Source: Syntrophales bacterium
GTDB taxonomy: Bacteria > Desulfobacterota > Syntrophia > Syntrophales > UBA5619
Length of the DNA: 64,000 nucleotides
Direction of reading: 5' to 3'
Assembly: GCA_023229765.1 (NCBI GenBank)
Contig: JALNYO010000020.1
Span: 1,525 to 65,524, forward strand
This document shows, one piece after another, positions 749-32,692 of this stretch. The first letter of the stretch is position 1; every line of letters begins with the position of its first letter. The notes beneath the pieces were generated by a model. That model worked only from the letters and a program-made list of their open reading frames with translations, ran no database searches and was not told the DNA's origin. The position numbers were made by a program, and so were the translations under genes.

Positions 749-773
749 CTGCTTAGGGGAGGCCAAGGAGCCC

Positions 774-3166: not shown

Positions 3167-3167
3167 C

Positions 3168-3878: not shown

Positions 3879-3910
3879 GAACCATGCATTTTTTAGAAAC
3901 GGAGTCGTCC

Positions 3911-5437: not shown

Positions 5438-5477
5438 TTCAAAATCTCCAAACGGCGAAGGATAAGCAGGCTTAATA

Positions 5478-16309: not shown

Positions 16310-16554
16310 AGTATCACACCCCCTGTTTGATAATATTTTGTTGCTTCTTGATACTTTTTGTAGATTCAAAAGGCACTCAATTTTGCCGACCCCAATACTG
16401 CGGAGTTGAGAAGATAGTCGCCACTCTTGCAGGGGCAGTTTTAGAGCAGAACACGGTAAGTTGCCTGAAAAACAGCGGGACATTAGTGCAAGAAGGAAAA
16501 AATGTCAAGTAAGAACAATTATAGGGGTGTGCGACAAATTTATGGGTAACAATT

Positions 16555-16938
16555 TCAAGCGGCGGCCCGATGCTCCCAAAAATCTTCCCAGCGGTTGCTA
16601 AGAATGCTGCAGCGCAGGGCTACGATACTGTCTGCACTCTTTACGGTCCAGTGCATTCCCGATTGTTTCAAACGCTGTGCTGCCAAGGTTCTACAGCCTG
16701 CTTCCATGACTCCAGAGCCTACAAAGAACCCACGTCTCCGAAAATCCGCATACCGCATCCGCTCCTTGTTTTTCTCAAAATAACCAGCTTCCCTTTCACC
16801 TGCGGCTTTATCGTATCCCGTCAGGGATGAACAACGACTGATGGCGGCAATAACATCTTCCGGCAGTCTCTTTTTACCCATATTTTTGTCGCAGACCCCA
16901 ATTATAACAACAATCGCAAATCGAAGATTAATGTTCAT
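16555..16938 (-). pseudogene. C-terminal remnant of an IS transposase (ISKra4/ISLre2-like)
   Basis: YFEKNKERMRYADFRRRGFFVGSGVMEAGCRTL..RLKQSGMHWTVKSADSIVALRCSILSNRWEDFW resembles the conserved C-terminus of that transposase group (from memory). Only ~115 aa are present. The apparent start codon belongs to a copy of the 21-bp repeat. Confidence 0.5.
16918..16938 (-). repeat. 21-bp repeat unit, locus A (1 copy)
   Basis: The plus strand reads AAATCGAAGATTAATGTTCAT, the reverse complement of ATGAACATTAATCTTCGATTT. Confidence 0.9.
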
Positions 16939-17030
16939 AATTTGTCAGGTTGACTTTTCAACGGACTGAACGTATTGAAAGAGAAAAAGAAACCTTTAAC
17001 CTGCGAAATATTTTACCACACAACGGGGAC

Positions 17031-18725
17031 ATGAACGATAAATATTTACAAAAAGATAATATAAAAGAGCGAATTCGTTTACTTATCCTCTCTCGGTTAT
17101 TTATCGTTACGTTTATTATGGGGATAGCCGTTTTCGCCAAGGTAAATGCGGGCGGTGAAATTTCTGATATCTACAGATCAGCTCTTTTTATTACGATAAT
17201 ATCCATATACATTACTTCCATTGGATTCTTTCTCGTTTTCTACTATCTCCGGAATGTTTTAATAAATATTTATATTCAAGGCATCGCTGATGTAATTGCC
17301 ATAACGGCAATGGTTTACGGTACCGGGGGAATTCACAGTTTATATTCGGTTTTCTATCCTCTTGTTATAATTTATACTGTTACATTTCTTGGCCGGGGGG
17401 GAGGGTTGCTTATCGCCTCCGCAGCTGCCATATTTTATGGTTTTCTTGCTGTTCTGGAGTATTACTCTTTGATTATCCCGGCTGTGCTTACACCTTTTGA
17501 TATTTATCAACCGAATGCCGGGTATGTCTTGGCAAGGGTTTTAACCCATATCATATCCTTCTATTTCACCGCCTTCCTGTCAATATTTGTTGTCGATCAG
17601 GAGAAAAAGACGAGGGCGCTGCTTGCCGAAAAACAGGATGCCTTCACCAAGCTCGACATCCTTCATAAAAGCATAATTGAGTCTATAGACGCGGGCATTA
17701 TGACTGTCAATCCGGAAGGGCGGATAAAGTCTTTCAATCGTGCTGCGTCGGAGATAACCGGCTTTAATTTAAGTGAAGTTGAAAACCAAAGACTTGCCGA
17801 TATATTCCCAGATTTTTTTGATTTTTCACAGAAGCAAAAGAAGGGCGCCAACAACCCCCCTTTTTTCACACGTTTTGAAGGGGTATTTAATACAAGCAAG
17901 GGGAAAAAGTTAAAGCTTGGCGCTTCACTCTCACAGCTTCGCGATCCGCAGGGCCGAATTATCGGAGAGATTATCATCTTTGAGGATGTTGCGGAGATTA
18001 TCGAGATGCGGGAATCTCTGGAAAAAAGCCGCCGTCAGGCCTTTACCGGAGAAATTGCCGCCAATCTTGCCCATGAGATACGCAATCCCCTTGCCGCTAT
18101 TGGTGGCTCAATACAGCTGCTGCGCGAGGATACCCCCCTTGACCATGTCAATCAGAGACTATTTGACATAATTATGAGGGGAAAGGAGCAATTGGAGAGT
18201 TTTCTAAAAGACTTTTTATTACTGGCAAGACCTGCTCCGGGTATTTGCGAGGAGGTTGAGCTGCGAAAAACAATCCTTGATGTTATTGATTCACTTCGTC
18301 TTGTTCCTGATTGGCGCCAAGCGTTAAAACTTAACCTCAGACTGCCGGAAGCCCCGTTATTGATCAATGTGAATAAAACAGAGATCAGGCAGGTTCTCTG
18401 GAATCTGACTCTGAACGCTCTTCAGGCGATGCCTGCAGGCGGAGTTTTGACCATTGAAGTTGCGTTGTGCCGGAAGAACGACGCCGATGCCGTCCAAATA
18501 AGGATCAGCGATGACGGTTGCGGCATTGATAAAATTGACCTACGGCGGATATTTGAACCTTTTTATACGACAAGGGAAGTGGGCACTGGTCTGGGATTGG
18601 CGGTAGTCAGTCGGATAATTGAAAACTGGCAGGGGACGATAGCGGTGGAAAGTGAATCAGGAAAGGGGACAACGTTTGCAATAACGTTTCCTCCTGCGCG
18701 TTCGTGCCCGGGAAAAGCGATGTGA
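17031..18725 (+). CDS. Sensor histidine kinase (multi-TM N-terminus, PAS, HisKA, HATPase_c)
   Basis: H-box LAHEIRNPL. N, G1 and G2 boxes (NLTLNALQA, DDGCGI, GTGLGLAV). The ORF opens at the TTG at 16950. The first ATG is at 17031, so the start is uncertain. Confidence 0.85.
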   Translation: MNDKYLQKDNIKERIRLLILSRLFIVTFIMGIAVFAKVNAGGEISDIYRSALFITIISIYITSIGFFLVFYYLRNVLINIYIQGIADVIAITAMVYGTGGIHSLYSVFYPLVIIYTVTFLGRGGGLLIASAAAIFYGFLAVLEYYSLIIPAVLTPFDIYQPNAGYVLARVLTHIISFYFTAFLSIFVVDQEKKTRALLAEKQDAFTKLDILHKSIIESIDAGIMTVNPEGRIKSFNRAASEITGFNLSEVENQRLADIFPDFFDFSQKQKKGANNPPFFTRFEGVFNTSKGKKLKLGASLSQLRDPQGRIIGEIIIFEDVAEIIEMRESLEKSRRQAFTGEIAANLAHEIRNPLAAIGGSIQLLREDTPLDHVNQRLFDIIMRGKEQLESFLKDFLLLARPAPGICEEVELRKTILDVIDSLRLVPDWRQALKLNLRLPEAPLLINVNKTEIRQVLWNLTLNALQAMPAGGVLTIEVALCRKNDADAVQIRISDDGCGIDKIDLRRIFEPFYTTREVGTGLGLAVVSRIIENWQGTIAVESESGKGTTFAITFPPARSCPGKAM

Positions 18726-18745
18726 TATTGGAAGGTAACAAGCTT

Positions 18746-20122
18746 ATGGCAATGGCAAAAATACTCGTTGTTGATGATGAGCAAGGCATGCGGGAACTGC
18801 TCGAGATCATGCTTGTCCGGGAGGGATACAGGGTTGTAACGGCGGCAGACGCAACCAAAGCGCTGCAGCGCTGCCGCAAAGAGGTCTTTGATCTGATCAT
18901 CACGGACCTCAAAATGCCTAAGGTTGACGGATTAACCTTTCTGCGGGAGGCAAAGAAAATTTCTCCCGGCGTCATGGTGATCCTGATCACTGCGTACGCC
19001 TCGGCGGAAACGGCGCTCGCGGCGATGAAGGAAGGCGTTTACGACTACCTCGAAAAGGATTTTGCGATTGATGATTTAAAAAGAATCATCCGCAATGCTC
19101 TGACTAACAAAGGGGAAAAACAGAAAGACCTCCTTTTTCTGAAGGAAGTCGGCCAGCAGGTGCGCTTTGGAGAAATGATCGGGAAAAGCAGCGAGATACT
19201 CAAAATATACGCAACCATAAGAAAGATTGCGCAAACCCTCACAAATATTCTGATTCTCGGAGAAAGCGGCACCGGAAAGGAGCTTGTGGCAAGGGCAATC
19301 CATGAGAACAGTCCCCGCAACGGAATGCCTTTTGTCGTGATTAATTGCGGAGGCATACCGGAAAATCTTCTGGAGAGTGAACTATTCGGTTATTGCAAAG
19401 GCGCTTTCACCGGAGCTTACACGGATAAGCAGGGGCTTTTTGAGTTTGCCAGGGGGGGGACAATTTTTCTTGATGAGGTAGCGGAACTCTCCACGTTTCT
19501 CCAGGTTAAACTGCTTAGGGTTGTTCAGGAAAAAACCTTTCGCCGGATCGGCGGTTCCGATGACATTAGCGTAGATGTGCGCATTATTTCCGCCACAAAC
19601 AAAAATCTTGCTGAAATGGTTAAAGCCGAGAAATTCCGAGAGGATTTGTACTACAGGCTAAATGTGATCCCGCTTTTTCTGCCTCCTCTCCGAGAGAGGA
19701 AGGAAGACATCCCCATTCTCACAAATTACTTTATCGAAAAATATTCAAAAGAGTTGGGAAAAGACGTAAAAACGATATCAACCTATGCAATGGAACTGCT
19801 TCTTGGGTATCAATTTCCCGGCAATATACGCGAGTTGAAGAATATCATAGAACGGAGCGTGGCTCTGGAGACATCTAACATCATATTGCCAGATAATTTG
19901 ATTCTTTCCGAAAGTATAGGGAGGATAAACAGCGGAACGTCTTCCCTCGGCATTGCCGATGGCGCGGTGAATCTCAATGAGGAACTGGCGATCTGGGAAA
20001 AAAATCTGATCGAAAAGGCACTCAAACAAGCGAATGGGGCAAAGAGCAAGGCAGCGGAGTTATTAGGAATAACCTATGATTCCCTTCATTATCGCTGTGA
20101 AAAACTGGGGATATCCTCATGA
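18746..20122 (+). CDS. Sigma54-dependent response regulator (NtrC family)
   Basis: Receiver domain (ILVVDDE ... DLKMP). AAA+ domain with GESGTGKE and GAFTGA. C-terminal Fis-type HTH. Start set at the ATG after the kinase stop. Confidence 0.9.
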   Translation: MAMAKILVVDDEQGMRELLEIMLVREGYRVVTAADATKALQRCRKEVFDLIITDLKMPKVDGLTFLREAKKISPGVMVILITAYASAETALAAMKEGVYDYLEKDFAIDDLKRIIRNALTNKGEKQKDLLFLKEVGQQVRFGEMIGKSSEILKIYATIRKIAQTLTNILILGESGTGKELVARAIHENSPRNGMPFVVINCGGIPENLLESELFGYCKGAFTGAYTDKQGLFEFARGGTIFLDEVAELSTFLQVKLLRVVQEKTFRRIGGSDDISVDVRIISATNKNLAEMVKAEKFREDLYYRLNVIPLFLPPLRERKEDIPILTNYFIEKYSKELGKDVKTISTYAMELLLGYQFPGNIRELKNIIERSVALETSNIILPDNLILSESIGRINSGTSSLGIADGAVNLNEELAIWEKNLIEKALKQANGAKSKAAELLGITYDSLHYRCEKLGISS

Positions 20123-20136
20123 ATGGTAAAATTTGC

Positions 20137-20165
20137 TTGACATCCGGTAGTTCATGCTTTATAAC
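20137..20165 (+). promoter_or_regulatory. Sigma70-like promoter TTGACA-17-TATAAC upstream of the liv-type operon
   Basis: Hexamers and the 17-nt spacer were read directly from the sequence. It would give a ~190-nt leader before the ATG at 20361. Confidence 0.45.
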
Positions 20166-20300
20166 GCCCGCACACAGACACGCAGACACGAGAAAAACAC
20201 TCCAGCGAAATGTAGTTTCAAACGAAAACGGTTGTATTGTTTTTTTAGTTTGGCAGAGCCATGGGCAAGGGTGGTTGGCTTCCCACGGACAGTTGGTTGT

Positions 20301-20337
20301 CCACGACGGCAATGGTTTGTCGTGGGCAAATTTTTTT
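20301..20337 (+). terminator. Terminator/attenuator-like hairpin in the liv leader
   Basis: CCACGAC (20301-20307) pairs with GTCGTGG (20319-20325) and is followed by GCAAATTTTTTT. An overlapping alternative stem is GGACA (20287-20291) with TGTCC (20298-20302). Confidence 0.35.
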
Positions 20338-20360
20338 GTGATTAAAAGGAGGGCTTGAAC

Positions 20361-21560
20361 ATGAAATTATTTAAAAGAGGGTTTCTGGTTGGCATCCTTG
20401 CCATTTCTTTTCTGTGGCCGGGGATGGCGTTTTCGGAGTCTATCAAGGTAGGCGCCGCTATCAATTTAACTGGTCCGGCATCAAGCTGGGGAAAATTTCA
20501 CGCTAAAGGACAGCAGGATTATTTCCGTTATGTAAATGAAGTAAAAGGCGGTGTTAACGGCAAAAAGATTGAAATGATCCTTGTGGATACAGCTTACAAG
20601 GTTCCCGAGGCGGTAGCCGCGGTTAGAAAGTTCGCCGTCCAGGACAAGGTTGACATGATCGCCACCTGGGGGACAGGGGAAGGACTCGCCGCCAAGCCGG
20701 TCATTCAGAATTACAAGATACCTACCATTAATTATTCAACTGGGTGGGAGATACTGGAAGCGCCGATAGAATATATGTACCTGCCTTTTGGCAGTTACCG
20801 CCTGGATTCCGAGGCCGTTCTTGATTACATCATGGCTGTCCACAAAGGCAAGGAACCGCCGAAGGTCGGGCTTCTCACCTACAACAATGCCTACGGACGC
20901 TCGATTCATAAACCCACCAAGGAATATGCCGCCAAAAAGAAGATAAATATTGTTGCAATTGAGGAATTTCCCGCGAAAACGGTTGATCTTTCAACGGAAC
21001 TGCTGCGGCTCCAAAAAGCCGGTGCTGAATATATCTTCATTCAGATGTTGCCGGCGGCTATCATAACGGCCCTGCGCAGCGCCGATCGAATCAACTACAA
21101 CCCACCATTTATCGGTACGTGGACCTCTACCGATCCGGATTTTTTCAAGATGGGACAGGGCCTGATCAGAAACCGGCTGAAAATGCAGTTCCCCGGCTGT
21201 CTGCCTGGCGATAATAATCAGGGAATAGCGCTTATGCAGGATTTGATCAAACGATACAAGACAGTCGATAAATTCGATAACGCCTATTGGGAAGGGGTTG
21301 TCGTTGGCAGCATCATGGAGCGGGCGATGGTGCGGGCTGACGAAAAATTCAAGGCCGTCAACAGCAAAACCATTAACAGTGCGATGGAATCCTTTAAAAA
21401 TGAGGATTTTGGCGGCTTGATTCCAGCCGTTTCATACTCGCCTTCCGATCACGAAGCATCCTTTAGCGGGCGCATGGTTTCCGTGAATGAAGATGGTTCG
21501 TTTACGCCTCTGACGAATTTCTACGTACCGGGCAAAGAAAATGTGAAATTCCTTAAATAG
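20361..21560 (+). CDS. ABC transporter substrate-binding protein (LivK/type-I periplasmic binding fold)
   Basis: Signal peptide. IKVGAAINLTGPAS start typical of the Leu/Ile/Val-binding family. ATG at 20361 follows an AAAGGAGGG RBS. Confidence 0.85.
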   Translation: MKLFKRGFLVGILAISFLWPGMAFSESIKVGAAINLTGPASSWGKFHAKGQQDYFRYVNEVKGGVNGKKIEMILVDTAYKVPEAVAAVRKFAVQDKVDMIATWGTGEGLAAKPVIQNYKIPTINYSTGWEILEAPIEYMYLPFGSYRLDSEAVLDYIMAVHKGKEPPKVGLLTYNNAYGRSIHKPTKEYAAKKKINIVAIEEFPAKTVDLSTELLRLQKAGAEYIFIQMLPAAIITALRSADRINYNPPFIGTWTSTDPDFFKMGQGLIRNRLKMQFPGCLPGDNNQGIALMQDLIKRYKTVDKFDNAYWEGVVVGSIMERAMVRADEKFKAVNSKTINSAMESFKNEDFGGLIPAVSYSPSDHEASFSGRMVSVNEDGSFTPLTNFYVPGKENVKFLK

Positions 21561-21632
21561 TAGATGAGTATAATCTATTAATCGCGTCGCGGATGATGAT
21601 TTCGATGCAGGCGAAACGGGGGAAACAGGCAG

Positions 21633-22460
21633 ATGAAGGCGTTCAGGGGACAGCCGTCCATTTACGAAAACACAAAAAACGCCAGAAGACCGGCGGAGAT
21701 TGAGATAAGGGGGCTGTCCCTTTCCTTTGGAGGCGTCAGGGCGCTGACAAATGTTGATTTGACGGTGAAGAGCGGCGAGCTCTTCGCCGTCATCGGCCCT
21801 AACGGCGCAGGAAAAACCAGCCTGATGAACTGCATCACCGGTTTCTATCATCCAGAAGCAGGCAAGATCATCTACAACGGAAAACAAATTGAAAATTTAC
21901 ATCCCCATCAGCTGGTAAAAATTGGCATTGGCAGAACCTTTCAGAATATTGAATTGTTTCCCGGAATGACCGTTATTTCCAATCTTTTCCTTGCCCGGCA
22001 CATCCACTACCGTTACGGTTTTTTACCGGCCTGCTTTTTTTTGAAATCGGTACGTCAGGAGGAGATTGCCCACCGTCGCATTCTGGAGGAGATCATTGAT
22101 TTTCTGGAAATCCAGTCCGTTCGCAACAAACCGGTCGGTTCGCTGCCTTACGGAATGATGAAGCGAATCGAGCTGGGAAGAGCGCTTGCCCTCCAGCCTG
22201 ATCTGCTTGTGCTTGACGAACCGTTCGCGGGAATGAATCTTGAGGAAAAAGAGGATATGGTGCGTTTTCTGCTCGAGCTTAACAGGGCTTGGGGGCAAAC
22301 CATGATTCTTGTTGAGCACGATATGGCAATTGTCATGAGCATTGCCAAAAGGATTGCCGTGCTCAATTTTGGAGAAAAGCTGGCAGAGGGAACTCCCGGT
22401 GAAATTGTCAAACACCCGGAGGTGATCAAGGCATACCTCGGTGATGATAAAATTCTCTGA
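21633..22460 (+). CDS. ABC transporter ATP-binding protein (LivG-like)
   Basis: Walker A GPNGAGKTS, Walker B LLVLDEP, and the LivG-type C-terminus (EVIKAYLG). Confidence 0.85.
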   Translation: MKAFRGQPSIYENTKNARRPAEIEIRGLSLSFGGVRALTNVDLTVKSGELFAVIGPNGAGKTSLMNCITGFYHPEAGKIIYNGKQIENLHPHQLVKIGIGRTFQNIELFPGMTVISNLFLARHIHYRYGFLPACFFLKSVRQEEIAHRRILEEIIDFLEIQSVRNKPVGSLPYGMMKRIELGRALALQPDLLVLDEPFAGMNLEEKEDMVRFLLELNRAWGQTMILVEHDMAIVMSIAKRIAVLNFGEKLAEGTPGEIVKHPEVIKAYLGDDKIL

Positions 22461-22501
22461 AATCGAAGATTAATGTTTATAAATCGAAGATTAATGTTCA
22501 T
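22460..22501 (-). repeat. 21-bp repeat, locus B (2 tandem copies)
   Basis: AAATCGAAGATTAATGTTTAT followed by AAATCGAAGATTAATGTTCAT. The first base is the last base of the livG-like stop codon. Confidence 0.95.
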
Positions 22502-22515
22502 AAAGGGGAAGATTT

Positions 22516-24444
22516 TTGAGCTTCGACAGCAACGAGCAAAATAAAGATTTTCGGGGAACTATCCCGCAGCTCCTGGCTTCACAGGCTGAAAGCATTATTG
22601 GAGACCAGGCCGCCATCAGGGAAAAAGCTTACGGCATCTGGGACGTTTACAGTTGGAAAGCTTACCTTGGCTACGTAAAGAAAATTGGGCTCGGCCTGAT
22701 CGCGATCGGATTTAAACGGGGCGATGTGGTGGGGCTCATCACTGACAATCATTCGGAATGGCTGTTTGCCGAAGTGGGGACACAGGCGGTGGGCGGCATC
22801 AGCTTGAATTTGTTCACATCGGCTGTCTCGGCGGAACTTGCTATTGCCTTGAACCGGGTCAGCGCCGCTTTTGTCTTTGCCGAAAATCAGGAACAGGTTG
22901 ACAAGCTCTTGGAGAGCCGCGATAAACTGAGCCATGTCAAAAATGTTATCTACATTGATCCTACGGGAATGCGCTCCTACGATGACAATCCCTGGATTAT
23001 TTCCTACCGTGATCTGCTTGCGCAAGGCGAAAAACTTGATAACGAGCGCGCGGAGCTTTTCCATGAAGAGCTGAAAAAAGGCAGGGGCGAAGAAACAGCC
23101 CTGATGATTCAGACGTCAGGGACAACAGGCGTGCCCAAGATGGCGATGCTGTCGCACCAGAACATCATCACAATCGGCAAAATGTGGACCACGGCGATAG
23201 ATATAAAACCAGGCGAAAACTGGCTTTCAATGTCGCCGCCGGCATGGATTGTCGATCAGATGTGGGCCTTTGGCGTAGCGCTTTACTCGGGAATGACGAT
23301 GAATTTCCCGGAAATGCCGGAGACAGTGGTGGAGGATTTTCGGGAGATCGGGCCATCCCGCATAATCACGGCATCGCGTTTCTGGGAGGACATGGCGTCG
23401 AAGATTCGCGTCAAGATGGGGGATGCAGGGTTCATCAAGCGCTATCTTTTCAACCAGGCAGAACGAGTGGGACGCTTGATGGAAAACACCCGCATGCAGA
23501 AAAAAACCCCCTCATTCCTTTTGAGTTTCCTTCACAAACTATCCTCCATAATAATTTATCGTCGTCTTCTCGATCGCGTGGGGTGTGCGAACTTTCTTGG
23601 CGCCTACACCGGCGGTCATCCGATCAGCCCGGATGTTATAATCTTTTTCCGTTCCTTCGGTCTTAATTTGAAGCAGTGCTATGGTTTGACCGAGTCCGGG
23701 GGAATCTTTCAGATTCAGCCGGATGACGAAGTGAAACCGGAAACGGTCGGCAAGCCGCTCCCCGGCGTCGAGATAAAAATTGATGAAAATCAGGAGGTGC
23801 TGATTCGCAGCGGTTCCTCCTTTCAAGGATATTATCAGAATGAGCAGGCGACCGCGGCTGCCTTCTTGGATGGCTGGCTGCGGACCGGAGACGCCGGTTA
23901 TCTCGATCAGGATGGTCATCTGTTGATTATCGGTCGTAAGGAAGAGGTTATCCGCAATAAGAGCGGTGAAGCCTTTTCCCCTGATTTCATTGAAACAAGG
24001 CTTAAGTTCAGCCCCTTTATCAAAGAGGCCGTTATCTTCGGCGAGGGGCGACCGTTTTTGACGGCGCTGATCAACATCGATCTCGGCAACACCGGGAGCT
24101 GGGCGGAAAAAAGAATGATCCCCTACACGACTTATATAGATCTTTCTCAGCAGCCGCCCGTGGAAGAGTTGATCCTATCGGAAGTGCGCACCGTCAATCA
24201 GCAATTGCCGGATGTTATGAAAATCAACAAATTCATCCTGCTTTATAAGCTGCTGGATGCCGATGATGAGGAATTGACCAGAACCGGCAAGGTGCGCCGC
24301 CACTTTGTCAGTGAATCGTATAACCTCTTGATAGAGGGCATGTACACAGGCAAAAGCGAGATTCCGATCAAGGGGAAAATACGCTATCGCGATGGGCAGG
24401 TAGGCGAGATAGATACAATCGTGCGGGTTATGACTGCATTATAA
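22516..24444 (+). CDS. AMP-dependent acyl-CoA synthetase/ligase
   Basis: AMP-binding motifs (MIQTSGTTGVPK, TGD, GKVRR). TTG start after an AAAGGGGA RBS. Confidence 0.85.
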   Translation: MSFDSNEQNKDFRGTIPQLLASQAESIIGDQAAIREKAYGIWDVYSWKAYLGYVKKIGLGLIAIGFKRGDVVGLITDNHSEWLFAEVGTQAVGGISLNLFTSAVSAELAIALNRVSAAFVFAENQEQVDKLLESRDKLSHVKNVIYIDPTGMRSYDDNPWIISYRDLLAQGEKLDNERAELFHEELKKGRGEETALMIQTSGTTGVPKMAMLSHQNIITIGKMWTTAIDIKPGENWLSMSPPAWIVDQMWAFGVALYSGMTMNFPEMPETVVEDFREIGPSRIITASRFWEDMASKIRVKMGDAGFIKRYLFNQAERVGRLMENTRMQKKTPSFLLSFLHKLSSIIIYRRLLDRVGCANFLGAYTGGHPISPDVIIFFRSFGLNLKQCYGLTESGGIFQIQPDDEVKPETVGKPLPGVEIKIDENQEVLIRSGSSFQGYYQNEQATAAAFLDGWLRTGDAGYLDQDGHLLIIGRKEEVIRNKSGEAFSPDFIETRLKFSPFIKEAVIFGEGRPFLTALINIDLGNTGSWAEKRMIPYTTYIDLSQQPPVEELILSEVRTVNQQLPDVMKINKFILLYKLLDADDEELTRTGKVRRHFVSESYNLLIEGMYTGKSEIPIKGKIRYRDGQVGEIDTIVRVMTAL

Positions 24445-24467
24445 GAAACAGGCACAGCCGTCCGTTT

Positions 24468-24509
24468 ATGAACATTAATCTTCGATTTATGAACATTAAT
24501 CTTCGATTT
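24468..24509 (+). repeat. 21-bp repeat, locus C (2 tandem copies, inverted relative to locus B)
   Basis: ATGAACATTAATCTTCGATTT occurs twice. The reverse complement of locus B differs at 1 of 42 positions. Confidence 0.95.
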
Positions 24510-24563
24510 GATGGTTTCAAAAAAAACGATTTTTAAGACACTGCAAGGTTAGGGAGGGTTAAG

Positions 24564-25442
24564 GTGGATTTTTTTTTGCAGCTGCTGATCGGAGGTCTTT
24601 CCGTCGGGTTCGTATATGGACTTTCCGCGATGGGTTTTGTAATGATCTTCAAATCGTCAAGCGTTTTGAACTTTGCGCATGGTGAATTGCTCGCACTGGG
24701 CGGTTATTTCTTTCTGATCTTTATCACGGTTGTCAAGCTGCCTGTTATTCTTGCGTTTATCTTTACGCTTGTTGCCTGTTTTATTACCGGAATCCTGATT
24801 GAAAGGGTTTTTCTCAGGCCCTTGATTGGAGAGAAACTGATCTTTGTCATAATGCTGACGGTTGGTCTGGCGGCAATGTTCAAAGGGATAATTCTGCTTA
24901 TCTGGGGGGGTAATCTCTACACATACCCCAATTTTCTTCCGGAATCGATGGGCTTTCGTTTAGGGGTGGTCAGCATCCCGCCTGTTTATGTGGCGACTTT
25001 TGGCATAGGCATCTTCTTTTTGATAATCTTCGGTCTTTTCTTTAAATTTTCCTCACAGGGGATTTACATGCGCTCTGTTGCCGACAACCAGCGGGCCGCC
25101 CTTTCTCTCGGCGTCAATGTAAGACGCGTTTTTGCCCTTTCCTGGGCGATAGCCGCCCTTGTAGCCGGGATGAGCGGCATAGTTCTGGGAATTATCAACG
25201 GCGTCAATGTTCACGATCTGTCCGCTTTGGGTTTAAAGGTGTTTCCGGTAATCATTCTTGGAGGGCTTGACAGCATCGGCGGCGCGATCGTCGGCGGTCT
25301 GATTATTGGTCTTTTGGAGACGTTTACCGGGGGATATATCTCCCCCTCGCTGCGCGATGTTGTGCCTTATATAATCCTGGTGCTTATTCTGCTGATCAAG
25401 CCATACGGTTTGTTCGGGTTAAAAGAAATCGAACGGGTTTAA
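24564..25442 (+). CDS. Branched-chain amino acid-type ABC permease (LivH-like)
   Basis: 292-aa polytopic protein. N-terminus LLIGGLSVGFVYGLSAMGF is typical of LivH. Confidence 0.85.
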   Translation: MDFFLQLLIGGLSVGFVYGLSAMGFVMIFKSSSVLNFAHGELLALGGYFFLIFITVVKLPVILAFIFTLVACFITGILIERVFLRPLIGEKLIFVIMLTVGLAAMFKGIILLIWGGNLYTYPNFLPESMGFRLGVVSIPPVYVATFGIGIFFLIIFGLFFKFSSQGIYMRSVADNQRAALSLGVNVRRVFALSWAIAALVAGMSGIVLGIINGVNVHDLSALGLKVFPVIILGGLDSIGGAIVGGLIIGLLETFTGGYISPSLRDVVPYIILVLILLIKPYGLFGLKEIERV

Positions 25443-25449
25443 AAAAAAG

Positions 25450-26520
25450 ATGAAAAAAATCCAATTACATCCCTGCGGCAACTTCAACGAGTCTTATGAC
25501 CGGGAGCTTACGGTCTTTTCTACCGACTTCGGCAGGATTTGGGCCATAGTCGGCATTATCTTACTTTTATCCGTGCCGCTGATGCCGCTCAGCCCTTATC
25601 TTATTTATGTGATGAATATCACCGGAATAGCGGCAATTTCAGTAATCGGGTTGAATCTGCTGACCGGTTTTACCGGGCAGATATCGCTCGGCCACGGGGC
25701 GTTCTTCGGGGTTGGCGCCTATGCAGGGGCAATTCTGGCGACCAGGCTTAATCTGCCGATATTTATCACTATCCCTGCTGCCGGATTGATCACCGCCGGG
25801 GTAGGCATGATTTTCGGCGTGCCCTCCGGACGACTCAAGGGACTGTATTTGACTATCGCCACCCTGGCCGGTCAGTTTATAATCGAATATGTACTGGTGC
25901 ATTGGGAATATATGACAAAGGGAACGATGGGAATCACGATGCCAATGCCCGTGTTCTTCGGATTCACCATCCAGGGGGATATTCCCTTTTATTATATAAT
26001 TTTCCCGCTGCTCGCTTTGATGCTGTGGATCGCCGTTAATCTGATCCGCACGCGTTTTGGGAGAGCATGGATTGCGATCAGGGATAACGACAGGGCGGCG
26101 GAAGGAATGGGAATTCCCATTTTCCCTTACAAGGTCTTTGCGTTTGCCGTCAGCTCTTTTTATGCCGGTTTTGCCGGCGCCCTTTGGGCGTATTATATGG
26201 GCAGCATCACAACGGAACCATTCAATCTCGCACTTTCGGTGGAGTATCTGGCGATGGTGATCATCGGCGGCTTGGGAAGCATTTCCGGTTCCATTTTTGG
26301 AGCCGTGTTCATTACAGTGCTCAACGAGCTACTGCGTTTTATGACCGATTTCCTGATGAACAGCGCAATCGTCACGCAACTGGGTCTGAGCCTGGCGCCT
26401 CTGCGGGAGTTTTTTTACGGGGTTGCCATCGTTCTCTTTATTCTGTTTGAACCGCGCGGATTAGCGGAGGTGTGGCGGATCGTTCGCTCCAACTTCCGCC
26501 TCTGGCCTTTCCCTTACTGA
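25450..26520 (+). CDS. Branched-chain amino acid-type ABC permease (LivM-like)
   Basis: 356-aa polytopic protein with the GQISLGHGAFFGVGAY motif. Confidence 0.85.
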   Translation: MKKIQLHPCGNFNESYDRELTVFSTDFGRIWAIVGIILLLSVPLMPLSPYLIYVMNITGIAAISVIGLNLLTGFTGQISLGHGAFFGVGAYAGAILATRLNLPIFITIPAAGLITAGVGMIFGVPSGRLKGLYLTIATLAGQFIIEYVLVHWEYMTKGTMGITMPMPVFFGFTIQGDIPFYYIIFPLLALMLWIAVNLIRTRFGRAWIAIRDNDRAAEGMGIPIFPYKVFAFAVSSFYAGFAGALWAYYMGSITTEPFNLALSVEYLAMVIIGGLGSISGSIFGAVFITVLNELLRFMTDFLMNSAIVTQLGLSLAPLREFFYGVAIVLFILFEPRGLAEVWRIVRSNFRLWPFPY

Positions 26521-26530
26521 AGGTTTTTAA

Positions 26531-27331
26531 ATGGCACAAAAATTATTGCAACTCAACAACATTTCGGTTGTTTACTCGGACGTAATTCAGGTTCTTAAGG
26601 GTGTTTCGCTGTCGGTTGAGCAGGGTCAGATTGTCTCCCTGCTGGGAAGCAACGGGGCAGGTAAAACGACAACCCTGAAGGCAATATCGGGACTTCTGAA
26701 GCCGGAAAACGGGATGGTAACGGAGGGGGCGATTCTTTATAAGGAGCGCCCGATGCATAACAAATCTCCGGAAGAAATCACCCGAAACGGCATTATCCAG
26801 GTATTGGAAGGGAGACAACCGTTCAAATATTTAACAATAGAGGAAAATCTCCGGGTGGGAACGGCGACAAGGTCAGGGAAACCCTATCAGGAAGACCTCG
26901 ACAAGGTTTATAATTATTTCCCCGCCTTAAGTACAATGCGCAAAAGACTCGCCGGTTACTGCAGCGGCGGAGAATTGCAGATGCTCGTTATTGGACGGGG
27001 GCTCATGGCCCATCCGGAATTGCTGCTTCTGGACGAGCCCTCCCTTGGTCTGGCGCCGATCCTTGTACGGGAAATCTTCGGCATAATTAAAAGGATAAAC
27101 GAAGACGAGGGAACCACTATCATCCTTGTCGAACAAAACGCCCAGATGGCCCTCCAGATTGCCCATTACGGCTATGTAATGGAAAACGGCAAGATTGTTA
27201 TGGAAGGCTCCGCGGAGGCCGTCCGTGAAAACCCGGATATTAAGGAATTCTATCTGGGAATGTCGGTAACAGGGGATGCCAAATCTTATGACGAGGTAAA
27301 ATCCTACCGGCGTAGAAAAAGATGGCTTTAG
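26531..27331 (+). CDS. ABC transporter ATP-binding protein (LivF-like)
   Basis: Walker A GSNGAGKTT, signature CSGGELQM, Walker B LLLLDEPS. Confidence 0.85.
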   Translation: MAQKLLQLNNISVVYSDVIQVLKGVSLSVEQGQIVSLLGSNGAGKTTTLKAISGLLKPENGMVTEGAILYKERPMHNKSPEEITRNGIIQVLEGRQPFKYLTIEENLRVGTATRSGKPYQEDLDKVYNYFPALSTMRKRLAGYCSGGELQMLVIGRGLMAHPELLLLDEPSLGLAPILVREIFGIIKRINEDEGTTIILVEQNAQMALQIAHYGYVMENGKIVMEGSAEAVRENPDIKEFYLGMSVTGDAKSYDEVKSYRRRKRWL

Positions 27332-29064
27332 TTTTTTTTGACTATCGCGTCCCTCATTATCAATTGGATGTTTTCCGCTCCGTTCCAGTCATTAATTTTT
27401 GGGGTAAAGACAATATCGAGCACAGCTTGGCTGATTATGGGCAGGTATTGACCCTTGTTGAACCAGATAGAGTCCCGGGAGATGCCGTTATTACTGACGC
27501 GCATTTTTAAATGGTTGTTTCCGACAATTGCCGGAGATGAAACGCTAACATTTCTGGCGCAGAGGATCGGTTCCTGATTGCCGCTGCCAAAAGGGGCCAG
27601 CATCTGAATTTGTGTAAGCAGTTCATGGTTTATGTCGGCCAGCAGGCACTGGGCGTCAATTGCGGTGCATGAGGCAAATTCCTGTTCCGGACAGCTGTCG
27701 TTGATAATTTCACTTAACTGCTTTGTGAACGGGGCTATATTTTCTTCCTCGATCAGGATGCCGGCCGCATAGCGATGGCCGCCGTAGGCCAGCAGATGCG
27801 ATTCACAACGCTTGATCCCCTCGAAGAGATTAAAATCTGCGGCGCTGCGTCCTGAGCCCTTGCCCAATCCATCTTTGATGCTGATAAGTATCGCCGGTCG
27901 GCCAAAACGGTCCGCTAGTTTTGAGGCGACAATCCCTATCACGCCTGGATGCCAGTCCGGAGAGGAGAAAACCATTGGTTCATTATCACCGGAAGTTGTG
28001 GCCTTTGACACTGTTTCCAGCAGTTGAGCGAAAATCGCTCTTTCCAGTAACTGTCTTTTTTTGTTAAAACCTTCAAGTTTTTGCGCGAGAATGAAAGCCT
28101 CTTCTGAATTTTCGGAAAGGAGCAGTTCGACGGCATTTGCCGCCGACGAAATCCTGCCCGCCGCATTTATCCGGGGGATGAGGGTAAAGGATGCCCTGCT
28201 TGCTTCTATCGGCTTTCCTTCCAGGCCGCAAACCATTTTCAGCGCGCGTATCCCAATTCTTGTGTCCTGCGATATAAGTTCCATACCTATTTTAGCGAAT
28301 ATCCTGTTTTCATCGACCAGCGGGACAACATCGCCAATGGTACCCAACGCAACGAGATCAAGATAGCCCCGCAGATTAGGGCAGTTGCTGTTACTCCAGA
28401 ACCCCTCGGTACGCAGGGCGCCGCGCAGGGCGATCAGGAAATTAAAAACAATGCCGACGGCAGCCAGTTGTTTGAAGGGAAAGCTGCAATCGGAGCGCTT
28501 CGGATTGACGATTGCGTCTGCCGGCGGCAGGGATTCCGAGGGTTCATGGTGATCGAGGATAATAACGTCGATGCCCAGCTCTTTGGCGAGCGCTATTTCC
28601 TCATGATTTGCCATGCCGCAATCAACGGTAACAATAAGCCCCACCCCTTCGGAGTGGAATCTTTTAACGGAGGCAATGTTAAGACCATATCCCTCCGACA
28701 TCCTGTCCGGTATGTAGAAACTTGCATTGCCATGTATTTCGCAAATAAAACGCAAAAGCACTACGACCGAGGTTATTCCGTCTGCGTCGTAATCGCCAAA
28801 AACAACGATTTTTTTCTTTTGATGGAAAGCGGTGATAAACCGCTCAACGGCCTTTTTCATGTCCCGCATTAAAAAAGGATTATGAAGATCGTGAAGGGAA
28901 GGGGACAGGTAATGTCTGATTTCTTCAGTAGTGCCGATGTCACGATTGATAATGATTCCGGAAACGATAGGGCTTATTCCCAGATCCCGAACGAGCAGAT
29001 ACTGAGCTTCCCTGTTTTCTTCCCGCAAATGCCAGCGGGTTGTCGGGAGATCATGAACGGACAT
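27328..29064 (-). CDS. recJ: Single-stranded-DNA-specific exonuclease RecJ
   Basis: DHH family motifs (VFGDYDADGITS, TVDCG, ILDHHE) and a DHHA1 region. Start set at the ATG at 29064 (MSVHDLPTTRW). Confidence 0.9.
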   Translation of the reverse strand: MSVHDLPTTRWHLREENREAQYLLVRDLGISPIVSGIIINRDIGTTEEIRHYLSPSLHDLHNPFLMRDMKKAVERFITAFHQKKKIVVFGDYDADGITSVVVLLRFICEIHGNASFYIPDRMSEGYGLNIASVKRFHSEGVGLIVTVDCGMANHEEIALAKELGIDVIILDHHEPSESLPPADAIVNPKRSDCSFPFKQLAAVGIVFNFLIALRGALRTEGFWSNSNCPNLRGYLDLVALGTIGDVVPLVDENRIFAKIGMELISQDTRIGIRALKMVCGLEGKPIEASRASFTLIPRINAAGRISSAANAVELLLSENSEEAFILAQKLEGFNKKRQLLERAIFAQLLETVSKATTSGDNEPMVFSSPDWHPGVIGIVASKLADRFGRPAILISIKDGLGKGSGRSAADFNLFEGIKRCESHLLAYGGHRYAAGILIEEENIAPFTKQLSEIINDSCPEQEFASCTAIDAQCLLADINHELLTQIQMLAPFGSGNQEPILCARNVSVSSPAIVGNNHLKMRVSNNGISRDSIWFNKGQYLPIISQAVLDIVFTPKINDWNGAENIQLIMRDAIVKKN

Positions 29065-29173
29065 TTCACTCCGCTTGAAAAAGCATGATAAACATATCGG
29101 TAAAATAACCGAGAAAGGCCGGGGCAACTATAATCAAGTTCCCCCGGCCTTTTGTGGTTCTTGAATGATATTC

Positions 29174-29371
29174 TTAAACAATTTTTTTGACAAAACCGGA
29201 CCGGATGCAGCGGGTACAAACCTTAACCTGCTTGACCCCTCCTGATTTATCGTCAACGCAACGGATCTTCTGGAGATTTGGTTGCCAGACCTTGGAATGC
29301 TTGTTATTGGCATGGCTTACCTTATGGCCCTTCAACGACTTCTTCCCACATACTTCACAAACTCTTGACAT
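29174..29371 (-). CDS. rpmB: 50S ribosomal protein L28
   Basis: [11 protein letters not shown]...[10 protein letters not shown]...W.PNLQ is a canonical L28. Confidence 0.95.
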
Positions 29372-29436
29372 AGCCGAACTCCTTATTGAAATGTTGGGTG
29401 CACTTAAATCATATTGGTCAGAAATGCAAGCATTTT

Positions 29437-30885
29437 TTAATCATTAGTAAGGGAAGGGGGCTGGCCGGTAGCTTCCAGAACCCTCATCCAGATATTTCCA
29501 AGGGGATCGAGCTGCGTGCCGGAACCAATCATCTTGAGGGGAATATGGACGTATTCATCCTTCACCATGCCTACAATTATCCCTGTTTTCCCTGCCATTC
29601 CAGCATGAACGGCATATTGTCCGAGGGCACCGCAGTAGCGGCTGTCACTGGCGTTTGCCGGAACGCTGCGGATCATGTAGCTGGGGTCGATATACTTAAT
29701 GTTAACTTCAATGCCTGTTTTTTCAAAGTGATCAGCAATTTCTTTTTTCAGGAAGGCGCCGATGTCATGCAGCCGGGGGTTGCCCGAGGCGTCTGTCTCA
29801 ATAGTCAACTGTCGCCGGTTGGCCGGATATGGACAAGTTGCCCCCTGCAAAGGGCTGCAGAGGGCAGGGTCCCCCCTTTTCCAGTCCTGAGACATGATGT
29901 CCTGTCCTGCGCCTTCGGCGACAAGAAGAACACAATGGGCGCTTTCTTTCAGCCTTTTTTCGATTTGCCTGAGCAGCCCCTTTTCACCATCCAAATCAAA
30001 GGGAACCTCCGGGATAAGAACAAAATTTACATCATTTTGTGCCAAAGCGGCGCTTGCCGCAATATGGCCGGCTTCCCGTCCCATGATCTTGACAAGGCCA
30101 ATTCCATTGGGCGCTCCCTTAGCCTCTACATGGGCGCACTGGATTGCCTTGACCGATTCGGAAACGGCTGTATCGAAGCCGAATGACTGCTGTATCAGGT
30201 TCAGGTCGTTGTCAATAGTCTTAGGTATCCCGACAACCCCAATATTCAGACCGCGGCGCGCAATCTCTTCGCAGATGCCCTCCGTTCCCCGTATGGTACC
30301 GTCTCCGCCTATTGTGAAAAGCAGGTCAATGTTCATTCTTTTCAGGGCGTTCACCATCTCGTCTATATCCTGACGTCCCCGGGAGGAGGAGAGAATTGAT
30401 CCCCCCAGGTTATTGATGTCTTTTACGACATCGGGCGTGAGCTGAATTACCGGATGGCCGTATTTATGAATAAATCCCTGAAATCCATACTTGATGCCAA
30501 TAACATTTTGAACGCCATAGCGATAATAAAGTTCCATAACCAACGAGCGGATAACATCATTTATGCCGGGGCAAAGCCCGCCGCAGGTAACAATGGCGGC
30601 TTTTGTTTTGGAGGGATCGAAGAATATTTTCTCACGCGGTCCGGCCATCTCAAAGGAAAGCGGCAAGCCCTCCGGCGATTTCAGGGAATCAAACTCGTTC
30701 AGATAGGTATTGAAAAGCAATCTCCTTTCTTCGGGAACAAAATAGCTGACGTTTACAGGAGACGGGATGGTGCATTCGCCGAGAGCATGTATCGTAAAAT
30801 CATAAACGATGTCTGTTTTATGAACATTAAGCTTAGCATTGTAAACATTAAACTCCGTTTTGCGAACATTAAACTCCGTTTTCAT
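29437..30885 (-). CDS. pfk: 6-phosphofructokinase (long ATP/PPi-type), N-terminus built from the 21-bp repeat
   Basis: [19 protein letters not shown] and PKTIDND motifs. The ATG at 30885 is preceded by an AGGGAGA RBS. No other start codon precedes the conserved core. Confidence 0.85.
30820..30882 (+). repeat. 21-bp repeat, locus D (3 degenerate tandem copies, inside the pfk 5' coding region)
   Basis: Units are ATGAACATTAAGCTTAGCATT, GTAAACATTAAACTCCGTTTT and GCGAACATTAAACTCCGTTTT. Hand counts give 16-17 of 21 matches to the canonical unit. Confidence 0.7.
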
Positions 30886-30899
30886 GCTATGAGTCTCCC

Positions 30900-31610
30900 T
30901 TAAGTTATTGTCAAAGGCGGGTTGATAAGGGCTGTATCCTCACGCCGGGTGGAGTTAAGAATGCACACCTTGCGGCCATTTATCTCTATTCTGCCTTCAG
31001 CGTAGTACTGGATGGCCTGGGGATAGATACGATGCTCCTCTGCCAAAATGCGTTTTGAGAGGCTGCTTGCATCATCATCGTCATAAACCGGAACTACAGC
31101 TTGGATAATTACGGGACCGGAATCTACTCCTTCATCGGCAAAATGAACGGTGCATCCGGAAAATTTCACCCCATAATCGATAGCCTTCTGCTGGACATGG
31201 AGTCCTGAAAAAGCGGGAAGGAGAGCCGGGTGGATATTAATTATTTTCATCGGGAAGGCGCGAAAAAAGAGGGGAGTCAGTATTCGCATGAACCCTGCCA
31301 TCACAACAAGTTCGACTCCCGAGGCTTTGAGGATTTCAATCACGCGTCTGTCAAAATCCTCTCTCGCCGCAAAGCGACGATGATCGACTACCGCCGTGGG
31401 AATATTATGTTTTCGACACCTCTCCAAGGCGTAGGCGCATGGATTGTTGCTGATCACTACGCTAATCTGGCCGTCGAGTTTTTTGTTTTCTATATTTTCT
31501 ATAAGGGACTGGAGATTTGAACCGTTTCCCGAAACAAGAACGCCAAGGACAGTCTTGCGCCGTGCCTCTCTTACCCCTTGAGTTTCAGATGAAGTAAACT
31601 GATCGGTCAT
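30900..31610 (-). CDS. purN: Phosphoribosylglycinamide formyltransferase
   Basis: VLVSGNGSNLQ and INIHPALLP motifs. It overlaps the purM 3' end by 26 nt if the ATG at 31610 is used. Confidence 0.9.
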   Translation of the reverse strand: MTDQFTSSETQGVREARRKTVLGVLVSGNGSNLQSLIENIENKKLDGQISVVISNNPCAYALERCRKHNIPTAVVDHRRFAAREDFDRRVIEILKASGVELVVMAGFMRILTPLFFRAFPMKIINIHPALLPAFSGLHVQQKAIDYGVKFSGCTVHFADEGVDSGPVIIQAVVPVYDDDDASSLSKRILAEEHRIYPQAIQYYAEGRIEINGRKVCILNSTRREDTALINPPLTIT

Positions 31611-32628
31611 CTTTCCCTCTCATTTCAATTTCTCCTAAGGCATAGCCGTGCTCACCCATTTTATCCAGCCGGTCGATAATCTCTGCTTCATCATTTTTTG
31701 CGACAATCAGGACCATTCCGATCCCCATGTTGAACACCCGAAACATCTCTTCATCATCGATCTTGCCGATGTCGCGGAGTAAATCAAAAATCGGCAGGGT
31801 GGGCCAGCTTCCTCTGCGAATTACGCTGCAGCACTGAGCAGGGATAATGCGGGGGATGTTTTCGGTAAAGCCCCCTCCGGTAATATGCACAATTCCGTGG
31901 ATTTGGAAATTTTTGATCAGATTGAGAATAGGTTTTACGTAAATTTTGGTTGGGGTGAGGAGCTCGAGCCCCAATGACTGGTCAAAACCGGCTATTTTGG
32001 CGGATGGTTTCAGTTTCCCTTCGTCAAAGAGGATGCGCCGCACCAGTGAAAAGCCATTGCTGTGCAACCCGGAGGATGCTATTCCGATAATCCGGTCGCC
32101 GACGCGGATTTCGGATCCGTCGATCAGCTTATCAGCTTCGACAACGCCGACGCAAAAACCGGCAAGATCATACTCGCCGTTTGGATAGAAACCCGGCATC
32201 TCCGCCGTTTCCCCGCCGAGCAGCGAGCAGCCGGCATCCTGACAACCCGTGACGATTCCTTCAACAATTTGAACGCTTTTATCTACATCCAGCTTGCCGC
32301 ATGCTATGTAGTCGAGAAAAAAGAGCGGCTCCGCTCCCTGAACAATGATGTCGTTTACCGACATCGCAACAAGGTCGATTCCGACCGTATCATGCTTGTC
32401 CATCAATTGCGCGATTTTGAGTTTGGTGCCTACGCCGTCCGTGGAAGAGACAAGCAGAGGGTCTTTTATTTTCCCCGTATCGAGGTGGAAAAGGCCGCCG
32501 AAACCGCCAATTCCACTCATCATTTCCCTGCGGGTGGTGTTTTTTATCAGAGGTTTTATTCTCTCGACAAAGGAATTGCCCGCATCAATGTCAACTCCAG
32601 ATTTTCTGTAAGTAAGTTTGTCTGTCAT
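31585..32628 (-). CDS. purM: Phosphoribosylformylglycinamidine cyclo-ligase (AIR synthetase)
   Basis: LTYRKSGVDIDAGN, GGFGGLF and DGVGTK motifs. Confidence 0.95.
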   Translation of the reverse strand: MTDKLTYRKSGVDIDAGNSFVERIKPLIKNTTRREMMSGIGGFGGLFHLDTGKIKDPLLVSSTDGVGTKLKIAQLMDKHDTVGIDLVAMSVNDIIVQGAEPLFFLDYIACGKLDVDKSVQIVEGIVTGCQDAGCSLLGGETAEMPGFYPNGEYDLAGFCVGVVEADKLIDGSEIRVGDRIIGIASSGLHSNGFSLVRRILFDEGKLKPSAKIAGFDQSLGLELLTPTKIYVKPILNLIKNFQIHGIVHITGGGFTENIPRIIPAQCCSVIRRGSWPTLPIFDLLRDIGKIDDEEMFRVFNMGIGMVLIVAKNDEAEIIDRLDKMGEHGYALGEIEMRGKDDRSVYFI

Positions 32629-32665
32629 TCAGCTTCTCTCCCCAAACGATAATTTAAAAATCCTT

Positions 32666-32692
32666 AAATCGCAGATTAATGTTCATAAATCG
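32666..32692 (-). repeat. 21-bp repeat, locus E (1 copy with one mismatch plus a 6-nt partial)
   Basis: AAATCGCAGATTAATGTTCAT followed by AAATCG, 38 nt upstream of the purM start. Confidence 0.85.

Follow-up and report, generated by a model that had tools for sequence, protein, structure and literature searches.

A 21-bp repeat unit of probably insertional nature in genomes of Syntrophales

A repeat unit of 21 bp occurs nine times, at five loci, in a stretch of 64,000 nucleotides (the window) from a Syntrophales bacterium (GenBank assembly GCA_023229765.1, contig JALNYO010000020.1, positions 1,525 to 65,524 of the forward strand). The gene order assigned with Pfam is lepA and adk on the minus strand, followed by a histidine kinase, a sigma-54 response regulator, a LIV-type binding protein and a livG-like gene (plus), an AMP-dependent ligase and livH/M/F-like genes (plus), then recJ, rpmB, pfk, purN and purM (minus), and recG (plus). 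The units lie upstream of the kinase gene, between livG and the ligase gene, between the ligase gene and livH, at the purN/pfk junction and upstream of purM, and the genes that adjoin them have no common function. The window was searched with ATGAACATTAATCTTCGATTT, allowing up to three mismatches and using 100 shuffles as controls, which gave matches at 16918 (minus strand), 22460 and 22481 (minus), 24468 and 24489 (plus) and 32666 (minus) at a shuffle expectation of 0; three diverged copies at 30820-30882 (plus) were added by a degenerate pattern. A position weight matrix (PWM) built from 211 family members scored the window units at 23.6 to 36.8 bits (shuffle maximum 6.7) and found nothing further above 8 bits, and Tandem Repeats Finder (TRF) returned a period of 21 for the two clean arrays (22460-22501 and 24468-24509). 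By agreement of three search methods, the nine units are all the copies in the window. They are listed here with the gene that contains one of the arrays.

16918..16938, minus strand: single unit, perfect consensus of variant v1 (ATGAACATTAATCTTCGATTT), in the divergent region between adk and the histidine kinase gene
22460..22501, minus strand: two tandem units (ATG... then ATA... in unit orientation, one with G3>A), between the livG-like stop and the AMP-ligase start
24468..24509, plus strand: two perfect tandem units, between the AMP-ligase stop and the livH-like start
30820..30882, plus strand: three diverged units, v3/v2-like, 4-5 mismatches each, in pfk codons 2-22 (gene on the minus strand)
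29437..30885, minus strand: phosphofructokinase gene (Pfam PFK, E = 8e-60), with the in-frame array at its 5' end
32666..32686, minus strand: single unit whose sole change is T15>G (the free middle loop position), about 35 nt upstream of purM in the purM/recG divergent region
32687..32692, minus strand: 6-nt remnant CGATTT (unit orientation) of a preceding unit, read directly from the sequence

The five loci had been reported in a first-pass annotation of this DNA, and their coordinates, copy numbers and orientations were reproduced by exact and near-exact matching, the degenerate pattern and the PWM scan. That annotation placed all units at gene boundaries, which is correct for four loci; the fifth (30820-30882) abuts a start codon but lies inside the pfk open reading frame (ORF). 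Its statement that the repeat has no spacers and is not CRISPR also stands, as the units abut directly, and no cas genes were found among the ORFs annotated (window 13.8-39.9 kb, and ORFs adjoining arrays elsewhere). All five loci fall within 15.8 kb of the 64-kb window, a clustering that suggests local spread and is statistically not strong.

Syntenic loci were obtained through AMP-ligase orthologues from another strain of the same species (L027) and from L033, L034, L035 and L036 (AMP-ligase protein identity of 91 %, 89 %, 81 % and 77 %, respectively). At the livG/ligase junction, the window holds two units (42 bp), L027 two and L033 three decayed ones, and the site is empty in L034, L035 and L036. 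The empty sequence, ...tctga/aaggggaag..., corresponds in the window to ...tctga(42 bp)aaggggaag..., that is, to a precise 42-bp insertion in ...CCCCTTT^CAGAG... (unit orientation). At purN/pfk there are three units in the window, two in L027, one in L033, three in L034 and none in L035 and L036. The ligase/livH units are absent from L033-L036, with both present in L027, and the purM-site unit is absent from L033-L036, the L027 locus stopping short of this site. The unit upstream of the kinase gene (16918) is absent from L033 and L035; the left flank in L027 differs from that point, and L034 and L036 have other genes upstream of the operon. In 14 further filled/empty comparisons, made between related metagenomic loci at 85-99 % identity, the joined flanks of the array equalled the empty site with no base gained or lost. 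Counted with one representative per context, the target reads W(-3) T(-2) T(-1) ^ C(+1), these bases being found in 48, 45, 45 and 40, respectively, of 53 non-redundant contexts. Units enter the sequence between WTT and C as exact multiples of 21 bp, and since the unit ends in TTT, an inserted unit recreates WTT at its 3' end.

Array presence and copy number vary among close relatives, and older arrays decay. Strains of the same species differ at pfk (three units against two), and copy number ranges from 1 to 3 at another locus. The pfk array, which L033 and L034 also have, is the most diverged in the window; the livG/ligase array is also present in L033, in decayed form; and perfect or near-perfect v1 copies, confined to the lineage of the window, make up the sites at 16918, 24468-24509 and 32666. 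The pfk array is the oldest in the window, the livG/ligase array the next, and the three v1 sites are recent, lineage-specific gains.

The filled and empty sites bear directly on whether the units are debris of one insertion sequence (IS) family, in the form of terminal repeats, transposase-binding sites or excision scars; a leftover IS end was among the origins proposed in the first-pass annotation. The 16918 copy lies 12 bp beyond the right-hand inverted repeat of a remnant of the ISKra4 family that is bounded by terminal inverted repeats, and the AMP-ligase gene sits between inverted arrays as in a composite element, both of which such an origin would explain. Whole units are nevertheless the sole difference between filled and empty sites (exactly n x 21 bp), the 16918 unit lies beyond the IS inverted repeat and shows no sequence relationship to it, no transposase enrichment was found at the other four loci or among the 149 ORFs beside arrays, and the ligase is syntenic in relatives without one or both arrays. 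An IS-debris origin is therefore extremely improbable.

The array at 24468-24509 is inverted relative to that at 22460-22501, so that in the LIV-type ABC operon the AMP-ligase gene has a 42-bp inverted repeat on either side; the two are complementary at 41 of 42 positions. In a polycistronic mRNA the two arrays could pair as a 42-bp duplex around the ligase ORF, a candidate RNase III site, and as DNA they may permit inversion. The ligase as a mobile cassette between the inverted arrays was considered and rejected, the gene being a conserved, syntenic operon member in relatives without these arrays.

The ISKra4-family remnant itself (16520-16906, approximately 390 bp) has imperfect inverted repeats at its ends (GGGGTGTGCGACAAATTTATGGGTAA / TTACCCATATTTTTGTCGCAGACCCC) and is not present in the adk/kinase spacer of L033 and L035. 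The minus-strand ORF at 16555-16938, which begins with a unit, encodes a C-terminal transposase remnant (NCBIfam NF033572, E = 9e-31), and since only the C-terminal 90 or so residues are left, the remnant is an internally deleted IS. In L027:4653-5405, compared with window 16300-17040, TetR and antiporter genes are found instead of adk, the IS remnant and the unit, and the synteny break between the two strains is at the edge of the 16918 unit.

The distribution of the unit was examined by an exact 19-mer scan of one genome per prokaryotic species, which gave 16 loci in approximately 7 metagenome-assembled genomes (MAGs) of Syntrophales/Syntrophus; some 10 further matches in unrelated taxa are in line with the chance expectation, and the first two bases of the unit are absent there. 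A metagenome scan, with positions 12 and 18 of the pattern left free, returned at least 120 loci comprising at least 135 unique arrays and at least 211 units. Among the matches listed, arrays contain 1-6 units arranged head-to-tail with no spacers, and alternating ATG and GTG units produce 42-bp higher-order repeats in some of them. The dominant unit variants differ between lineages. No copies were found in a scan of viral contigs, and the unit sequences had no match in a literature search limited to open-access texts. The 21-bp repeat is one member of a large family of miniature modules found in Syntrophales genomes, a family that has apparently not been described before.

About half of the arrays in related MAGs are inserted at GGATT^CC inside a hairpin repeat resembling repetitive extragenic palindromic (REP) elements (CTGGATT^CCCGC...GCGGGAATGAC), some copies of which hold units at two ATT^C positions; a second mosaic repeat hosts further arrays, at ATG^AAA in its loop. 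In the window, no intact REP-like copies of the first type were found when their characteristic ends were sought beside the units and in intergenic regions. The related Syntrophales MAGs (L001, L005, L010, L038, L089 and many more; for example L010:1277-1360) are rich in such REP-like repeats, GTCATTCC-CGC..GCG-GGAATCCAG, and contain further mosaic short repeats (GGGGATG...CATCCCC; CCTCCCCTTGAAGGGGAGG; GACGGCnnnnGCCGTC); both kinds are often hosts of the 21-bp unit.

The unit consists of a near-invariant 9-nt head, ATGAACATT, followed by a mini-hairpin (A10-A11-N12-C13 / T14-N15-C16 / G17-N'18-T19-T20) and T21. Among the matches listed, positions 4-11, 13, 14, 16, 17 and 19-21 are near-invariant, and positions 12, 18, 15, 1 and 3 vary. 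A Watson-Crick pair is formed at 12:18 in 197 of the 211 units listed (G:C 106, T:A 46, A:T 45; other combinations 14), and as both positions had been left free in the search pattern, the pairing was not imposed by it. Together with A10:T20, A11:T19 and C13:G17, this pair makes a 4-bp stem with a 3-nt loop. Among the 53 distinct types of unit, pairing is found in 92.9 % of cells, and the covariation score was 0.265 against 0.096 for shuffled data (reached in 0 of 500 shuffles); the signal collapsed in slid-partner controls. Apart from these two positions, the one internal site that varies is position 15 in the middle of the loop (T 187, C 16, G 7 in the same 211 units), giving loop triplets TTC (185), TCC (16) and TGC (7). 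The head has no conserved pairing, leaving a single hairpin at positions 10-20. The complementary strand reads AA-N-C-(G-N-A)-G-N'-TT, which in the commonest variant contains GCGAAGC, and DNA mini-hairpins of the GCGNAGC type, with any N, are extraordinarily stable, with melting temperatures (Tm) of 70-76 C (PMC13037366). These patterns of substitution argue for an intrastrand hairpin under selection. The imperfect 14-bp palindrome with 6 of 7 positions paired, from which the first-pass annotation had proposed a dimeric-protein binding site, is present in the consensus but is not conserved across the family (A7:T12 pairs in 13 of 53 types); covariation within it was no better than in shuffles across the 53 types, and the dimer-site proposal is not sustained.

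The surroundings of the arrays were compared for signs of a regulatory role. Between co-directional genes, 20 units were in sense and 16 in antisense orientation, and further units lie in regions between convergent (11) or divergent (10) genes. The ORFs closest to the arrays, 149 in number, belong to 130 Pfam families, of which the largest group, PIN, has three members, and no family is enriched among them (the top 25 families, those listed, are mostly housekeeping; single matches beyond these may be hidden); because the neighbours are unrelated housekeeping genes, the units do not mark a regulon. If the units were operators or enhancers bound by a transcription factor or nucleoid protein such as the neighbouring sigma-54 activator, with cooperative binding in tandem arrays, this would account for the strong conservation of sequence across species, the mostly intergenic location, the 21-bp tandem phasing of about two helical turns and the sigma-54 two-component system adjoining two loci. 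It would not account for orthologous intergenic regions of close relatives without sites, for exact n x 21-bp insertions, for the lack of any position or orientation rule relative to promoters or of a shared class of neighbour, for units inside ORFs, or for a palindrome that is not conserved whereas intrastrand pairing is. No sigma-54 -24/-12 match was found beside the units, and the window had fewer such matches than shuffles; the only result of promoter, terminator and sigma-54 scans to coincide with units was a weak sigma-70-like match within the pfk array. An operator function is quite improbable, and the regulator or recombinase binding array suggested in the first-pass annotation finds no support, given the insertion polymorphisms, the absence of orientation bias, the units inside ORFs and the diversity of neighbour families. 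Host protein binding to the units, as of IHF or gyrase to REP/BIME, may occur and would be secondary (by eye, the unit differs from the IHF consensus WATCAR-N4-TTR by two mismatches). It is highly probable that the unit is an insertional selfish repeat and not a regulatory site, and of the three origins offered at the outset, the one supported by the evidence is an element like REP or a miniature inverted-repeat transposable element (MITE).

With a length of seven codons the unit is open in 3 of 6 frames, so that insertions survive both at gene boundaries and in frame inside ORFs. On the other strand the target reads G^AAW, which fits ATG^AAA gene starts (Met-Lys) and purine-rich Shine-Dalgarno regions; among the matches listed, CAT (ATG on the other strand) follows 25 of 134 arrays. 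The pseudo-ORFs that the first-pass annotation ascribed to the seven-codon length do arise from the arrays, which are also tolerated in frame in genuine genes. The N-terminus of the pfk product in the window is M-KTEFNVR-KTEFNVY-NAKLNVH, three heptads after Met1; ATG 30885 is the sole start codon for this gene, with a Shine-Dalgarno sequence (AAGGGAGA) 8 nt upstream, and public gene calls in L027, L033 and L034 begin at the same ATG. The orthologues have 0 (L035, L036), 1 (L033), 2 (L027) or 3 (L034) heptads after Met1 and align perfectly beyond. In one DUF1015 protein the domain is interrupted midway by four heptads (KAELNVH x4), two NCBI-annotated Syntrophales-type DUF1015 orthologues have 3+2 and 2+2 heptads at the same two sites, and 17 other orthologues have none. 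In-frame units were also found in genes for a sigma-54 activator, for the beta subunit of a 2-oxoacid oxidoreductase and for a group II intron protein; in a Metallophos-domain protein the forward frame MNIKLRF apparently provides the start and the basic residues of a lipoprotein-like signal peptide (translation by eye). The group II intron reverse-transcriptase/maturase copies in L049, L093, L107, L129 and L146 share an in-frame unit (…YYKPIP(KAKLNVH)NRPL…), and L146 carries one more unit, at a position where the remaining four copies have none.

Such hosts raise the question of whether the unit is selected as coding sequence, for a heptapeptide (MNI(N/K)LRF, or K(A/S/T)K(L/I/F)NVH from the other strand) or a leader peptide, with the DNA repeat as a by-product. 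The seven codons, ATG start and three open frames, the arrays within the reading frames of pfk and DUF1015, the signal-peptide case and the coincidence of variable positions 12, 15 and 18 with third codon positions of the MNINLRF frame all fit this explanation. The same variation is fully explained by base-pair covariation at 12:18 and a free loop nucleotide, however, and most arrays are non-coding or run into stops directly afterwards, the frame of either strand is used according to the host gene, and orientation relative to genes is random. A search for heptad arrays in 5.8 billion proteins returned only 2 short ORFs and is uninformative. The peptide idea, which had arisen from third-codon variation in the first variants, was dropped once 211 units showed 12/18 pairing and position 15 as a loop base; selection for a peptide is very improbable.

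The best reading of the unit is a mobile module that is REP/MITE-like but much smaller. The unit would be mobilised in trans as single-stranded DNA by a hairpin-recognising nuclease/ligase, an enzyme that would recognise the head and hairpin and cut after TT, by a logic like that of HUH/Y1 enzymes (IS200/IS605 TnpA, RAYT). As the 3' TTT of the unit recreates the target, reinsertion, aided by slippage, would build the spacer-less arrays, and slippage or unequal exchange probably contributes to array size. A single-stranded route is preferred because there are no terminal inverted repeats and the conserved structure is intrastrand; a duplex of 21 bp cannot circularise, which argues against DDE, tyrosine or serine recombinase routes. 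On this analogy, an HUH-type route of mobilisation is a tentative proposal. The mobilising machinery may well be new.

Several observations weigh against this account, the first being the results of searches for an enzyme. No transposase or other gene is consistently linked to the arrays among the 149 neighbouring ORFs (Pfam, top 25 families listed), and a phmmer search with an approximate IS608 TnpA query had no match in approximately 1 Mb of unit-bearing DNA. An E. coli RayT query found one Y1 gene (L134:3666-4349, PF01797, E = 1.6e-12), 0.8 kb from an array, which is flanked by its own, different 25-nt inverted repeats. The unit, with one 4-bp hairpin and direct tandems, is unlike known HUH-mobilised elements. 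IS200/IS605 insertions are strand-biased with respect to replication (PMC5027513), and the presence of both unit orientations within 16 kb of the window speaks weakly against such a bias here. Nearest-neighbour folding gave the same stem at only -0.1 to -1.7 kcal/mol, no better than shuffles, and because the predicted energy is weak, the case for the hairpin rests on covariation and the published mini-hairpin chemistry; two compensatory changes, multiplied by copying, could be enough to produce the three 12:18 variants. TT(T) is present both in the left flank and at the unit 3' end, so a target-site duplication (TSD) of up to 2-3 nt is possible, and the empty sites could be precise deletions, for which phylogenetic parsimony is less favourable than for insertion.

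The outcome of the enzyme searches also bears on spread with no dedicated enzyme, by template switching, slippage or gene conversion at TT(T), or by recombinational copying of domesticated hairpin signals such as primase or single-stranded DNA initiation sites or hairpin promoters. TT(T) is common to both junctions, array copy number varies like that of a minisatellite, and mini-hairpins of the GCGNAGC type are known from hairpin promoters of phage N4 and from ssi priming sites of the phage G4 type and of RSF1010 (PMC13037366); these points, and the fact that no enzyme was found in the unit-bearing DNA searched, lend weight to these explanations. Microhomology of 2-3 nt, however, cannot explain one 21-nt sequence at 53 unrelated sites with a specific +1 C, slippage accounts for array growth and not for dispersal, and a replication-linked signal predicts a strand consistency that is not seen. 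Taken jointly, these explanations are unlikely. An insertional selfish repeat, non-regulatory and with the anatomy and behaviour described above, is likely. It is possible, and put forward with reserve, that the unit is the smallest self-contained bacterial transposable unit seen so far, a 21-nt head plus mini-hairpin moved as single-stranded DNA at WTT^C by a possibly new hairpin-guided nuclease/ligase, with its seven-codon length, stop-free in three frames, selected for colonising coding sequence.

The element is a short interspersed bacterial repeat that fails defining features of each family with which it was compared. REP sequences and REPINs are thought to be moved by RAYTs, which are Y1 HUH enzymes (PMC3116915, PMC3337134). 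The unit resembles them in being very short, highly repeated, non-autonomous, hairpin-forming and mostly extragenic, in forming lineage-specific families, and in its presumed mobilisation in trans by a single-copy enzyme. It differs in having 21 bp and a 4-bp stem, where REP have about 25-40 bp and a long stem, in forming direct spacer-less tandems where a REPIN is an inverted doublet, and in its defined WTT^C insertion point, clean empty sites and frequent in-frame position in ORFs. A 5' GTAG-type tetranucleotide is conserved in Pseudomonas and E. coli REPs; there is no GTAG in the 211 units listed, in which the head is ATGAACATT. The only RAYT seen near arrays is flanked by a different repeat: L134:3643-4387 encodes a 227-aa Y1_Tnp protein (IS200-like/RAYT-like) between inverted repeats (AATTAGGGACAGAGCCCTATTATTT, 96 % complementary) and looks like a REPtron-like unit of a different repeat family.

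In the 'peel and paste' transposition of the IS200/IS605 family, for example IS608, TnpA carries out single-strand insertion 3' of a short target (PMC3201880, PMC5027513). The unit is likewise inserted just 3' of a short specific sequence (WTT^C, 53 contexts), has no terminal inverted repeats and has a hairpin near its end, and its own 3' end resembles the target, which would permit head-to-tail reinsertion; IS608, by contrast, needs hairpins at both ends and a 4-nt guide/cleavage pairing, and IS200/IS605 elements are hundreds to thousands of bp long with a replication-biased orientation. Classical DDE-type MITEs have terminal inverted repeats, a TSD of fixed length and a size of about 50-500 bp, whereas the 21-mer has no terminal inverted repeats, its two junctions have at most an ambiguous TT(T) in common, and its length is 21 bp. 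Rickettsia palindromic elements (RPE) are selfish repeats present in frame in unrelated genes, translated, and compatible with folding (PMC10969869). The unit is also in frame in ORFs (pfk, DUF1015 and others), but RPE are palindromes of about 100-150 bp, not tandem, restricted to Rickettsia and with no defined 4-nt target known, whereas the unit has 21 bp and belongs to Syntrophales. MIRU elements are 40-100 bp long, oriented with transcription and overlap stop and start codons, and pneumococcal BOX elements have modules of 45-59 bp with a variable middle module (boxB). The unit shares with these a dispersed distribution and variable tandem copy number between operon genes, as well as a frame-compatible length (MIRU) and a modular structure with a variable middle (boxB); no 21-bp unit, GNA mini-hairpin or defined WTT^C target is known from either element. 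The likeness to GCGNAGC (PMC13037366) is exact in the complementary strand of the commonest variant (GCGAAGC), with loops GAA, GGA and GCA and an invariant closing C:G; GCGNAGC is, however, a structural motif, as opposed to a genetic element, the outer G:C is replaced by T:A or A:T in variants v1 and v2, and the fold of the unit is predicted from sequence.

As to the remainder of the window, the G+C content is 58-63 % in positions 1-6000 and approximately 48-52 % in most of the rest (single 2-kb bins up to 55.5 %), the cumulative GC skew turns at approximately 50 kb, and no Rfam family was found in the window.

The arrays are strain-variable markers for Syntrophales MAGs, and a source of spurious small ORFs (MNINLRF...) and mis-called gene starts. 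If the account given here is true, it would point to an enzyme with a short, defined insertion specificity, of interest for research on HUH/Y1 transposases and for insertion tools, and would place the GCGNAGC mini-hairpin, long known, in a natural genomic context, where covariation is evidence of a selected fold. The Syntrophales would be a second bacterial lineage besides Rickettsia in which selfish repeats routinely serve as peptide segments of housekeeping enzymes, as at the pfk N-terminus, and the lower size limit of mobile DNA would fall, since 21 nt, one 4-bp hairpin and a 4-nt target would suffice for precise, repeated insertion.

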